A stretch of DNA of 45,892 bases from a virus (taxonomy: Duplodnaviria; Heunggongvirae; Uroviricota; Caudoviricetes): IMG/VR virus record IMGVR_UViG_648276653_000019; one strand, given 5' to 3'. The position numbers are program-made. Below, piece after piece: positions 21,701 through 24,700 of this stretch. Each line of letters begins with the position of its first letter. Positions within the stretch are counted from its first letter, which is position 1.

Positions 21701-24700
21701 GGAAGAGGGCTAAAAAGTTTGATTGGGTACGCAAGGCCAGTACGCAGGTACGCAAAAATGGTACGCAAAGTGGTACGCAAAAGAGCAAGGTGCGTACCAG
21801 CGAAAAGCCTGCCAGCGCTGGCCGTACGCAAAAAAGTACGCAACCAAAAGCCGAGCCTCCACCAGATACGAAACCGATACGCGGGGTGCGTACCGATCCG
21901 CCGACTAACCCATTTCAACCCGGTAACCAGCAGGCGTTAAAGCATGGTGGTTACGCCCGCCGCCTTCTGCTTAAAGATGAGGTCATTGAAGACGCGAAAG
22001 CGTTGACACTCGAAGACGAATTATTTCGCCTTCGGGCTAACAACCTTGTCGCGGCAGAGAATATTGGCCGGTGGCTGACCAAGCTGGAAGATGCCGAAGG
22101 GGACCAGGAAAGAAAGGTGTTGATGGAAAATATCAGCGCCGCCGAGAAGGCGATGATGCGCAATACCGTTCGTATTGAGTCCATCGTCGGCACGCTTGCG
22201 ACGGTAGGCAAAATATTTGCTGATACGGACTATCGCAAGGCTGCTACTGACAAGGTGTCGCTGGAGGCCGATCGTCTTCGCCGTGATGCAGGTATTGATG
22301 ATGGCAACGGAGAGCGTGACCTCAATGACTTCTACTCTGACATCCAAACCGACGCTGAATCCGGTCCTGCGTAGCTTCTGGACGACGCAGGCGCGTAACA
22401 AAGTGCTTTATGGTGGCCGGTCATCGTCAAAATCGTGGGATGCCGCTGGCATAGCCATATTTCTGTCGAATAAATACAGCCTGCGCTTTTGCTGTGCACG
22501 TCAGATCCAGAACAAAATTGAAGAGTCGGTATATACCCTGCTCAAAATTCAGATTGACCGCTTTGGCCTGCGGCATCGCTTCCGCATTCTGAACAACAAA
22601 ATCATTAACCGGGTGACCGGGTCTGAATTCGTCTTTTATGGGCTCTGGCGCAACATTGAAGAGATTAAGTCTCTGGAAGGTATCAGCGTTCTGTGGCTCG
22701 AAGAGGCCCACGCGCTGACGGAATACCAGTGGAAGATACTGGAGCCTACCATCCGTAAAGAGGGCTCAGAGTGCTGGTTTATCTTTAACCCCGGGCTGGT
22801 GACTGATTTCGTGTGGCGTAACTTTGTGGTCGATCCGCCAGAAGATACGCTGATACGCAAAATCAACTACGATGAAAACCCATTTTTGTCCGACACCATG
22901 CTGAAGGTTATCGAAGCCGCTAAACGCCGGGATCCGGATGGGTTTAAGCATGTCTACGAAGGCGTGCCAGAGTCGGATGATGATGCGGCCATTATCAAGC
23001 TGTCATGGATTGAGGCGGCCGTTGATGCCCACAAAGTCCTTAATTTCGAGCCAAGCGGGCGCAAGCGTATTGGCTTCGACGTCGCCGATAGCGGCGCCGA
23101 TAAGTGCGCTAACGTCTATCGCCACGGCTCCGTAGTGTACTGGGCGGATGAGTGGAAGGCGAAAGAAGACGAATTGCTGAAGAGCTGCCAGCGTACGTAT
23201 CAGGCGGCACTGGAGCGTGATGCTGATATCGTCTACGACTCAATCGGCGTTGGGGCATCTGCTGGCGCGAAATTCGCAGAAATTAATGAGGATCGTAAGC
23301 GCGAAAACATGAATGCCTCCCGCATCAATTATCAGCGATTCAATGCTGGCGCTGGTGTGAATGAGCCGGACTACGAATATATAGGCATCCCGAACAAGGA
23401 TTTTTTCGCCAACCTCAAAGCACAAGCCTGGTGGCTGGTAGCGGATCGCTTCCGTAACACCTTCAACGCGGTAAAGAACGGCGAGCAGTACCCGGTAGAT
23501 GAGCTGATAAGCATCGACTCATCCTGCCCGCTGCTGGAAAAGCTCAAGCTGGAACTTACCACCCCGCACCGTGATTTTGACAAAAACGGTCGCGTGATGG
23601 TGGAAAGCAAGAAAGACCTCGCAAAGCGTGACGTACCATCGCCGAACGTGGCCGACGCGTTCATCATGGCGTTTGCTCCAACCGATACGGCAATGGATAT
23701 CTGGGAAGCGCTGGGAAACAGCTAAATACCTGGAAATAACCGTTTCACGCAAAATTCACGCTATTCATTTTTCGACCCTGTTTATGCATGTTTTATTCAC
23801 GCGCTTTTAGCCACTTAACCCCGATAAATAAGCCTTTGGCGGACATTTCATCATGGGAGGGATCCGGCTGGTGCGGGTAACAGTCATTATGTTAAATCGG
23901 GTCGTTTTTTAACAAATTATCCTATCCGCCACGAGTACCGAAAAAGCCGGAGAATAGTCACCATGGCGAAGAAAACAGGACGAGTCGCCACGGCGGATTC
24001 GTACGATAACTTTGTTGCCCGTGTCGGAATGCAGCAGCCTAACCAGCATGCCGCATCGACCTACAGGGCGAACTATACCAGCCGCAACCGCCTGCTCATC
24101 GAGTGGGCTTATCGTTCCTCCTGGATTATTGGTGCCGCAGTCGATTCGAAAGCGGACGATATGACCAAAAAGGGCGTGCGGATCACCAGTGAGATTGACC
24201 CGAAACGTCGTGGCATTCTGGAATCACGGTTCGATGAGCTTCAGCTTTGGGATTGCATCAACGAGACGCTGAAATGGTCCCGGCTGTATGGCGGGGCGGT
24301 GGCGCTGATTCTGATTGAAGGTCAGGCACCGCTGACGCCGCTGGTGCTGGATAAGGTTGGCAAGGGCAGCTTTAAAGGTCTGGCTGTACTTGACCGCTGG
24401 ATGATTAACCCACAGCTCACCAGGCGCATTAAGGCGCTTGGCCCCAATCTCGGCAAGCCAGAATTCTATGACATCGTGACGACGGCGCAGGGGCTTCCTG
24501 CGTGGACCGTTCACCACAGCCGACTGATTCGCATGGATGGTGTGAAACTGCCCTACCAGCAGAAAATCACCGAAAACGAGTGGGGCATGTCCATTGTCGA
24601 GCGCATCTTCGATCGCCTGACTTCCTACGATAGCACCAGCGTCGGCGCCGCCCAGCTTGCCTACAAGGCACATCTGCGAACGGCAAAGATTAAAAAGCTG

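Follow-up and report, generated by a model that had tools for sequence, protein, structure and literature searches.

A 45,892-bp stretch of tailed-phage DNA (Caudoviricetes; IMG/VR record IMGVR_UViG_648276653_000019), referred to here as the window, was analyzed with respect to a dense array of the word GTACGCA lying inside the small terminase gene, terS (21598..22374, + strand; 258 aa). A preliminary description of this DNA had placed seven direct and two inverted copies of GTACGCA(A/G) within ~170 bp of terS, in a segment coding for a basic, T/Q/K-rich linker, and had proposed the array as a candidate pac site for headful packaging. An exact search of the window confirmed the number and orientation of the copies, and the identity of the gene was confirmed by a match of residues 1 to 257 to PHROG 370, “terminase small subunit” (E 2e-101). 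The encoded stretch, VRKASTQVRKNGTQSGTQKSKVRTSEKPASAGRTQKSTQPK..., was basic and rich in Thr, Gln, and Lys as described. The variable eighth base stood for the seven direct copies, in which it is A or G, and fell for the two inverted copies, in which it is C.

The whole array, the candidate pac site or TerS recognition site, occupies both strands of 21727..21893 and codes for residues 44 to 99. Copies 1 (GTACGCAa, 21727..21733) and 3 (GTACGCAa, 21748..21754) lie on the + strand and are read in frame 0 as V-R-K, while copies 2 (GTACGCAg, 21740..21746; S-T-Q), 4 (gGTACGCAa, 21761..21767; G-T-Q), and 5 (gGTACGCAa, 21773..21779; G-T-Q), also on the + strand, are read in frame +1, copy 5 belonging to a 12-nt unit that is missing from some relatives. 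Copy 6 (21791..21797, - strand; TGCGTAC on the + strand) encodes V-R-T and closes a first sub-array. The second sub-array consists of copies 7 (GTACGCAa, 21824..21830; R-T-Q) and 8 (GTACGCAa, 21836..21842; S-T-Q), both on the + strand, and is closed by the inverted copy 9 (21887..21893, - strand; V-R-T). The orientation string is therefore +++++-++-, or 5+1 and 2+1 words, with start-to-start spacings of 13, 8, 13, 12, 18, 33, 12, and 51 bp. Adjacent direct words are mostly 12 to 13 bp apart, slightly more than one helical turn, with one pair at 8 bp, and the direct copies share the extended consensus gGTACGCAa. The sole GATC of the array, at 21894-21897, directly follows the last word and lies outside every word.

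These nine copies make up most of the 12 in the window, the remaining three being isolated (581 on the + strand, 4729 and 38639 on the - strand). In 100 dinucleotide-preserving shuffles, the window had 4.37 copies on average and never reached 12. At the shuffle rate, ~0.016 copies are expected in 167 bp, with a Poisson probability of ~2e-22 for nine or more. Among all 7-mers of the window, GTACGCA showed the tightest clustering. Two degenerate words (ATACGAA and ATACGCG, with the core TACG kept) were also observed at ~21865-21882, in the gap between copies 8 and 9. This stretch is conserved among close relatives, and pAEv1818 keeps the peptide TKPIRG there without the DNA words; the stretch may therefore be constrained at the protein level.

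AlphaFold2 predicted an N-terminal three-helix domain, probably of the helix-turn-helix (HTH) type, at approximately residues 1 to 46 of TerS (21598..21735, + strand), with helices at residues 6 to 15, 20 to 27, and 31 to 40 at a predicted local distance difference test score (pLDDT) of 80 to 89. The third of these, EGAIRKRAKK (residues 31 to 40; 21688..21717, + strand), is the putative recognition helix, and its first five residues predict the word across the 292 loci considered below. Residues 48 to 102, the part encoded by the array, were predicted to be disordered (pLDDT ~30). A long helical hairpin followed at residues 111 to 203, as expected of a TerS oligomerization core; the C-terminal model is weak, all homologues behind the full-length model being 93 to 98% identical and the alignment correspondingly shallow. 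When the family profile and the domain model were compared with known folds, the nearest neighbors of the N-terminal domain were all HTH DNA-binding domains (TyrR, Lrp/AsnC, sigma-70 region 4, TraR, IstA, DnaA domain IV, and resolvase), at values below significance (E 0.005 to 1), and helix 3 fell on the recognition helix in these weak alignments. TerS matched no Pfam family at an E value of ≤0.01, Terminase_2 included, and gave a weak match to NF040601 (TerS_not_xtmA). A comparison of full-length TerS with PDB sequences returned chance hits only, with no solved relative and no similarity to Sf6 gp1 or P22 gp3. A Foldseek search with the full-length model matched the long hairpin to coiled-coil, BAR, and ESCRT structures of a generic kind and was set aside as uninformative.

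Relatives were collected from IMG/VR with the 43 N-terminal residues only (patterns MA[KT]PDWE and AIE[ST]AYRA), a segment that ends just before the first word. All 80 loci so returned carried 3 to 9 copies of GTACGCA at nt 130 to 302 of terS, with almost none in the ~4.3 kb of flanking sequence per locus, so that conservation of the repeats in the terS genes of related phages was borne out. SEN34, HK639, GF-2, and Klebsiella phage 2b LV-2017 share just the N-terminal domain with the window TerS and yet have three or four GTACGCA at the equivalent place. Over all word types described below, the commonest layout was +++-, three direct copies and then one inverted, with direct copies spaced 12, 13, or 15 bp apart; the expanded +++++-++- form was common to the window and 23 other nonredundant loci. 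Copy 6 was variable, occurring in ~1/10 of the window-type genes among the 80 close relatives, and most shorter variants have an inverted copy at the matching position. Copy 9 was kept in most close relatives and is missing from pAEv1818 and Chronis. Copy number was polymorphic through gain or loss of 12-nt units encoding SGTQ or KSTQ (window 21761-21784 and 21824-21847; loci L002, L011, L021, and L026), and genes of 250, 254, 258, and 262 codons among the close relatives carry 4 to 9 copies.

The array could in principle be maintained for its protein product or for its DNA, and several measurements separated the two. One word is read in three ways, as V-R-K in frame 0, as x-T-Q in frame +1, and as V-R-T in the inverted copies. 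The codons it forces are rare in the neighboring late genes: Thr is ACG in 5/5 words versus 31% in those genes, Gln is CAA in 4/5 versus 14%, and Val is GTA in 2/2 versus 16%. Across 34 close relatives without indels, word positions were ~5-fold less variable than spacers (0.009 versus 0.045), and third codon positions followed the same trend (0.016 in words versus 0.056 in spacers). Because the word occurs in two frames and in inverted orientation, forces rare codons, and is better conserved than the spacers, selection acts on the DNA word and not on the peptide. A by-product model, in which a basic T/Q/K/R-rich linker of VRK/GTQ repeats is selected, for example, for nonspecific DNA contacts, and the DNA repeats are slippage duplications, would account for the low complexity and basic character of the linker, for copy numbers that differ by 12-nt units, and for HK639-type genes, which keep all copies in one frame encoding VR(K/T). 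That model is already contradicted by the frame and orientation analysis, since the same word yields VRK, xTQ, and, from the opposite strand, VRT. Furthermore, inverted copies cannot arise by slippage, the spacers differ in both sequence and length, synonymous positions within the words are fixed at rare codons, and identical triplets of the word are found in noncoding DNA.

The comparison of Erwinia phage vB_EhrS_59 with Enterobacter phage ENT1 bore on the same question. Their TerS proteins are homologous throughout, and each gene contains four words whose positions coincide: two are read in frame 0, one is read in frame +1, and the fourth is inverted. Every one of these words differs at the same two bases, GTACGCA in EhrS_59 and GTAACCA in ENT1, while the resulting amino acid changes are unrelated to one another (R to T, T to N, and R to V). 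With this concerted change at the DNA level, the by-product model was given almost no weight. The two phages also differ in helix 3, which is EGGIRKRAK in EhrS_59 and HATILKRAN in ENT1.

For a wider view of helix 3 and word, divergent carriers of the N-terminal domain were gathered from annotated phages and four more IMG/VR scans, giving 292 nonredundant loci chosen by the N-terminal domain only and containing 42 different nine-residue helix 3 sequences. Words were counted without reference to any motif, as the top strand-collapsed 7-mer in the 210 nt after the conserved Trp43. The top word took the general form GGT(A/T)NNCA, with its identity dependent on helix 3; it fitted GT(A/T)NNCA or GGT(A/T)NNC in 270 of the 292 loci versus 2 of 1,687 control windows from the same loci, and it was present 3 to 9 times in the loci and mostly twice in the control windows. 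Helix EGAIRK(R/K)AK was found with GTACGCA, HGA(I/V)NKRAK with GGTATCCA (HGAIN with GTATCC), HATI(L/I)KRA(N/K) with GGTAACCA (HATIL with GTAACC), HQAISKRAK with GGTTGCCA (HQAIS with GTTGCC), and DTAIRK(R/K)A with GGTTCGCA (DTAIR with GTTCGC). Further pairs were HVAI(A/G/S)KRAK with GGTTACCA, HV(N/T)ISKRAK with GGTTAACA, HTAIN(K/N)RA with GGTTTCCA, HGAIQ with GGTAGCC, and NPAIA with GTTAGCA.

The pairing was maintained when the rest of the domain changed. EGAIR on three different helix 1/helix 2 scaffolds was always accompanied by GTACGC (86 loci), and HGAIN on four scaffolds was always accompanied by GTATCC (70 loci), indicating that the word follows helix 3 and not the remainder of the domain. 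The reverse direction was examined with an IMG/VR scan for GTTCGC-N9-GTTCGC-N6-GTTCGC, a word for which a prediction had been made earlier from nine loci. Among the matches listed (the first 120), 100 of the triplets lay directly downstream of a TerS N-terminal domain of this kind; helix 3 could be parsed in 81 cases, and it read [D/E]TAIR in each. Enrichment or avoidance of a restriction site (GTAC/RsaI) was ruled out as the source of the repeats, as the word changes with the TerS helix, and an RNA-level signal was ruled out by inverted copies that are conserved in the architecture.

A related arrangement was observed in a Magnetococcales metagenome-assembled genome (MAG; PEAM01000005.1, - strand; locus L444), where one inverted and three direct GTACGCA, at ~3965 of the reverse complement, are located just upstream of, and not inside, a 185-aa small terminase gene of another family (PHROG 57, E 4e-28). 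The HTH of this TerS reads LGVSEGAIRKAEK, with the helix SEGAIRK, and the next gene encodes ParB_N and an N6 methylase. The helix/word pairing seen in the window is the same here, in a TerS of an independent family and with the array placed differently.

GTDB genomes were also scanned for three GTACGCA at array spacing. At least 120 matches were obtained, mostly constant-period minisatellites (72/120), and the scan carries no estimate of specificity. Triplets outside terS in many genomes, and the plain minisatellites that account for 72 of the 120 genome hits listed, would fit a model in which the words are sites for another host or phage factor, or a neutral recombination or slippage hotspot, unrelated to TerS. 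Such a model leaves three observations unexplained, namely, the change of word with TerS helix 3 on several scaffolds, the 100/120 listed GTTCGC triplets beside [D/E]TAIR helices, and the constant place of the array within terS, and we consider its chance to be as slight as that of the peptide by-product.

Approximately nine of the matches listed reproduced the HK639-type layout exactly (word, 8 nt, word, 5 nt, word) and lacked both a terS and an EGAIR helix in the vicinity. Five of these (L448, L529, L464, L519, and L426) carry further triplets, on the same strand, of other words from the helix/word pairs given above. In these TerS-less cassettes, 2 to 6 different word triplets, each with the form word-9 nt-word-6 nt-word, are lined up on one strand. 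The most extensive, in a Zoogloea sp. MAG (L448; NZ_JAQVCN010000015.1, - strand, locus + coordinates ~6340-6844), has seven consecutive triplets of six words in ~500 bp: GTACGC, GTTACC, GTTCGC, GTATCC, GTTTCC, GTTGCC, and then GTATCC again, all of them belonging to the helix/word set. More than one word type in triplet form was seen in none of 419 terS-selected loci, and shuffled loci had none. Genes neighboring the cassettes encode a PHROG 8117 winged-HTH protein, a P4-type integrase arm domain, an AlpA/excisionase-like HTH_17 protein, a rolling-circle Rep, and PHROG 11341, and one element adjoins the host rpoA-rpsD-secY genes. The composition of the cassettes indicates, independently of terS, that the words belong to one functional system. 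A further step would be that the words form a family-wide packaging-specificity code readable from helix 3, with at least ten pairs, and that TerS-less integrative elements, as satellites, exploit it by displaying pac sites for several helpers at once; we put this forward tentatively and regard it as rather doubtful at present. If the cassettes are pac mimics, they would represent a new satellite-helper strategy, a multi-key piracy of packaging.

Other triplets stood in different surroundings. In an Undibacterium sp. (L453), a GTACGCA 15,12 triplet at 7242-7276 lies 37 nt downstream of a rolling-circle Rep gene (PF23343 REP_ORF2-G2P; PHROG 2969), so that here a word array adjoins an inovirus- or plasmid-like Rep. 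At L438 and L500, GTACGCA 15,12 triplets lie beside genes that, judged from sequence, look like defense genes; one product is a 774-aa helicase/restriction-like protein and the other a 321-aa Mrr-like protein. Such genes may represent cargo of islands, placed close to a packaging signal, in which case they would be relevant to the transduction of defense systems.

Downstream of terS, and overlapping its 3′ end by 50 nt, lies the large terminase gene terL (22325..23725, + strand; ATG at 22325; PF04466 Terminase_3, E 3.5e-40; TIGR01547, PBSX family), followed by the portal protein gene (23963..25414, + strand; PF06381, E 1e-101; PHROG 146), while holin, lysozyme, and Rz (PF03245) genes lie upstream. 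Residues 10 to 450 of TerL matched Sf6 gp2 (PDB 4idh) at an E value of 1.1e-79, and the P22 gp2 nuclease domain was matched as well; Sf6 and P22 are headful packagers (PMC9611059). A search for lambda-type cosN, allowing up to 2 mismatches, gave 5 matches versus 4.0 expected, none near terS, a negative result that covers the lambda type of cos only. Because TerL is Sf6 gp2-like and no lambda cosN was found, packaging is assigned to the headful class on sequence grounds. vB_EhrS_49 and vB_EhrS_59, which belong to the TerS family and have a different headful TerL type, have been reported as headful packagers (PMC7317114). Headful packaging without a lambda cos, as the preliminary description had it, is thus supported by the type of TerL, the lack of a lambda cosN, and the report on EhrS_59.

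The same evidence bears on the proposal that the words are a cosB-like anchor, positioning a cos-type terminase beside a nicking site that yields cohesive ends, in the manner of the R sites of lambda, 21, and N15. The logic of lambda cosB is the same, with several TerS sites, one of them inverted, and a helix and sites that differ together, and N15 has an accessory inverted R site within its terS (PMC4669245). A TerL of the Sf6 gp2-like/PBSX family and not of the lambda gpA type, no cosN-like sequence beyond chance, and headful packaging reported for the family member EhrS_59 (PMC7317114) all oppose it, and such an anchor is very unlikely here.

With regard to the wider genome, the window is a lambdoid mosaic, the early and lysis half (1331-21189) being ~97% identical to HK97, HK544, and HK106, and terS and the late region (21598 onward) matching Klebsiella temperate phages and Wanchaivirus PDP110P2 at 94 to 98% identity; PDP110P2 shares both halves. 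In the literature on close Klebsiella and E. coli relatives, no packaging mode was found, and the Mulock announcement and the PseuP_222 paper contain no packaging analysis. The record ends of RCIP0034, Mulock, PDP110P2, Chronis, SEN34, and HK639 coincide with terS or terL gene starts and were rejected as mapped termini, being re-opening conventions. The window terS matched 209 of 5,426 complete E. coli genomes, 111 of them over ≥80% of the gene. The copy in E. coli Eco_70239 is 99.9% identical, and close phage relatives include Klebsiella phages Mulock, GZ7, and RCIP0034. In the listed RefSeq E. coli matches and in most Klebsiella phage records, the gene is labeled “hypothetical protein.”

Taken together, the data make it probable, with good confidence, that the small terminase of this phage recognizes the array, which would be the specificity part of a headful pac site. 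TerS would be the reader because the word tracks helix 3 of its own HTH in both directions of inference, and the pac site reading first suggested for this DNA gains support from selection at the DNA level, from helix/word covariation, and from the Sf6-like TerL. For physical binding, stoichiometry, wrapping, the role of the inverted copies, cut position, and packaging direction, we infer the following scheme. In TerS, a disordered linker of ~55 residues would connect the N-terminal three-helix HTH with a helical oligomerization core, and helix 3 (EGAIRKRAK) would read the 7- to 8-bp word (G)GTACGCA(A). The nine words would be written into the linker-coding DNA, where the protein constraint is presumably loose. 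Several HTHs of one TerS oligomer would engage successive words, so that weak specific contacts add up; the bound DNA would probably be bent or wrapped, and the inverted words would close each sub-array. Bound TerS would then recruit the Sf6-like TerL, with the first cut made nearby and headful packaging afterwards.

Linkage between HTH and word fits any DNA-binding function of TerS equally well, and the site lies within a terS-terL transcription unit whose two genes overlap by the 50 nt already given. An autoregulatory operator was therefore considered, at which TerS or its free HTH would bind the words and throttle terS-terL transcription or translation, the packaging start being set elsewhere or being independent of specific sequence. 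A TerS DNA-binding domain is known to serve in recognizing the genome for packaging (PMC9611059), and known pac sites lie in or beside terS. In addition, the PHROG 57 TerS has its array upstream of the gene and not within it, and the same triplets are found in the TerS-less elements, where there is no terS that could be regulated. An operator as the sole function thus appears unlikely, if less so than the other alternatives considered, and the operator and pac functions are not mutually exclusive.

Several points weigh against recognition of the array by TerS as a pac site. No end mapping, footprint, or transduction data for any member of the family were found in the literature. According to reviews, the binding of pac-phage TerS proteins to DNA in vitro is weak and lacks sequence specificity (PMC9611059, PMC4737164), and specific reading by a pac-type TerS would therefore be unusual. 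The HTH assignment relies on a model with pLDDT of ~80 and on subthreshold matches, by which the fold is supported but not proven. The window array is irregularly spaced compared with the basal 15,12 form, and GTACGCA triplets are found outside terS too. Lastly, helix and word lie <100 bp apart and are coinherited, so that part of their association is due to common ancestry, a concern that is lessened, though not eliminated, by the scaffold-swap, concerted-change, and reverse tests.

Recent reviews call it unclear and controversial how a pac-type TerS selects viral DNA (PMC9611059, PMC4737164). The present TerS family would provide natural specificity variants, in which five helix residues predict a 3-bp change in a repeated 8-bp word, and the question of pac recognition thereby becomes directly testable. 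Packaging specificity, and hence the likely start points of generalized and lateral transduction, would be predictable from sequence; this terS recurs in E. coli genomes and has many Klebsiella relatives. Literature searches turned up neither this word, nor a pac site for this TerS family, nor covariation between TerS and pac.

Among known systems, the lambda-type ori iterons in the O gene have the same design, with binding sites in the linker-coding part of the gene for the binding protein itself, and they differ in serving replication initiation, in the protein family, and in the words. In the window, approximately seven CCGCACA(T/A)GAAG-like words at 14185-14310, encoding a low-complexity AHEAAQTTAHEAAH stretch, lie inside an open reading frame (13762-14709, + strand) for an HK97 O-like replication initiator and are very likely such origin iterons.

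In form, the 5+1 and 2+1 words in 167 bp come closest to the pac site of P1, which lies in pacA and consists of ~160 bp within the small terminase gene, with seven TGATC(A/G) hexamers in two clusters flanking the cut. The P1 words contain GATC and are controlled by Dam methylation, whereas GTACGCA does not contain GATC. To our knowledge, no covarying family of words is known for P1.

P22 had also been named as a parallel. Its pac site does lie inside the terS coding sequence (gene 3) of a headful enterobacterial phage, and to that extent the likeness stood; the likeness in repeated motifs did not, since P22 has one asymmetric 22-bp site and no word array (PMC9611059). The HTH-like motif of P22 TerS (gp3) is occluded, and no binding of this protein to pac could be demonstrated in vitro (PMC4737164, PMC9611059). 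In SPP1 and SF6, the pac region (pacL, pacC, and pacR; boxes A, B, and C) spans the terS start and contains sets of direct repeats, and the TerS (G1P) ring displays its N-terminal HTHs approximately one DNA turn apart, for which a wrapped-DNA model was proposed (PMC4737164). The DNA-binding domain of SF6 shows little specificity for the repeats, recognition has been ascribed to a bent-DNA conformation, and conservation of the repeats between SPP1 and SF6 is poor (PMC4737164). In contrast, the words described here show strict conservation and vary in step with the recognition helix, a pattern that implies direct reading of bases. Two further differences from the SPP1/SF6 type are that the present TerS gave no Terminase_2 match and that the array starts at codon 44 and not at the promoter.

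With Sf6, the resemblance lies in TerL, which is a close structural-family relative of gp2, the archetype of one headful class, while TerS is unrelated in sequence to gp1. Initiation of packaging series in Sf6 is said to be imprecise. Sf6 gp1 has been reported to bind DNA weakly and nonspecifically (PMC9611059).

The system closest in logic is cosB of the lambda family (lambda, 21, N15, and Monarch), where sites R3, R2, and R1 are read by the winged HTH of gpNu1 (PMC4669245). As in the window, there are several short TerS sites with one in the opposite orientation, and recognition helix and sites differ together, setting packaging specificity (PMC4669245). Lambda cosB belongs to cos phages, in which nicking occurs at cosN, IHF binds between the R sites, the R sites are mostly upstream of Nu1, TerS is a winged-HTH dimer, and TerL is of the gpA type, whereas the present array has 3 to 9 words of 7 to 8 bp, 12 to 15 bp apart, in the linker-coding part of terS, together with an Sf6-like TerL. 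No sequence relation between TerS and Nu1 was detected, and no lambda cosN was found in the window. The joint difference of helix and sites supports a site that works like lambda cosB and not membership in that group.

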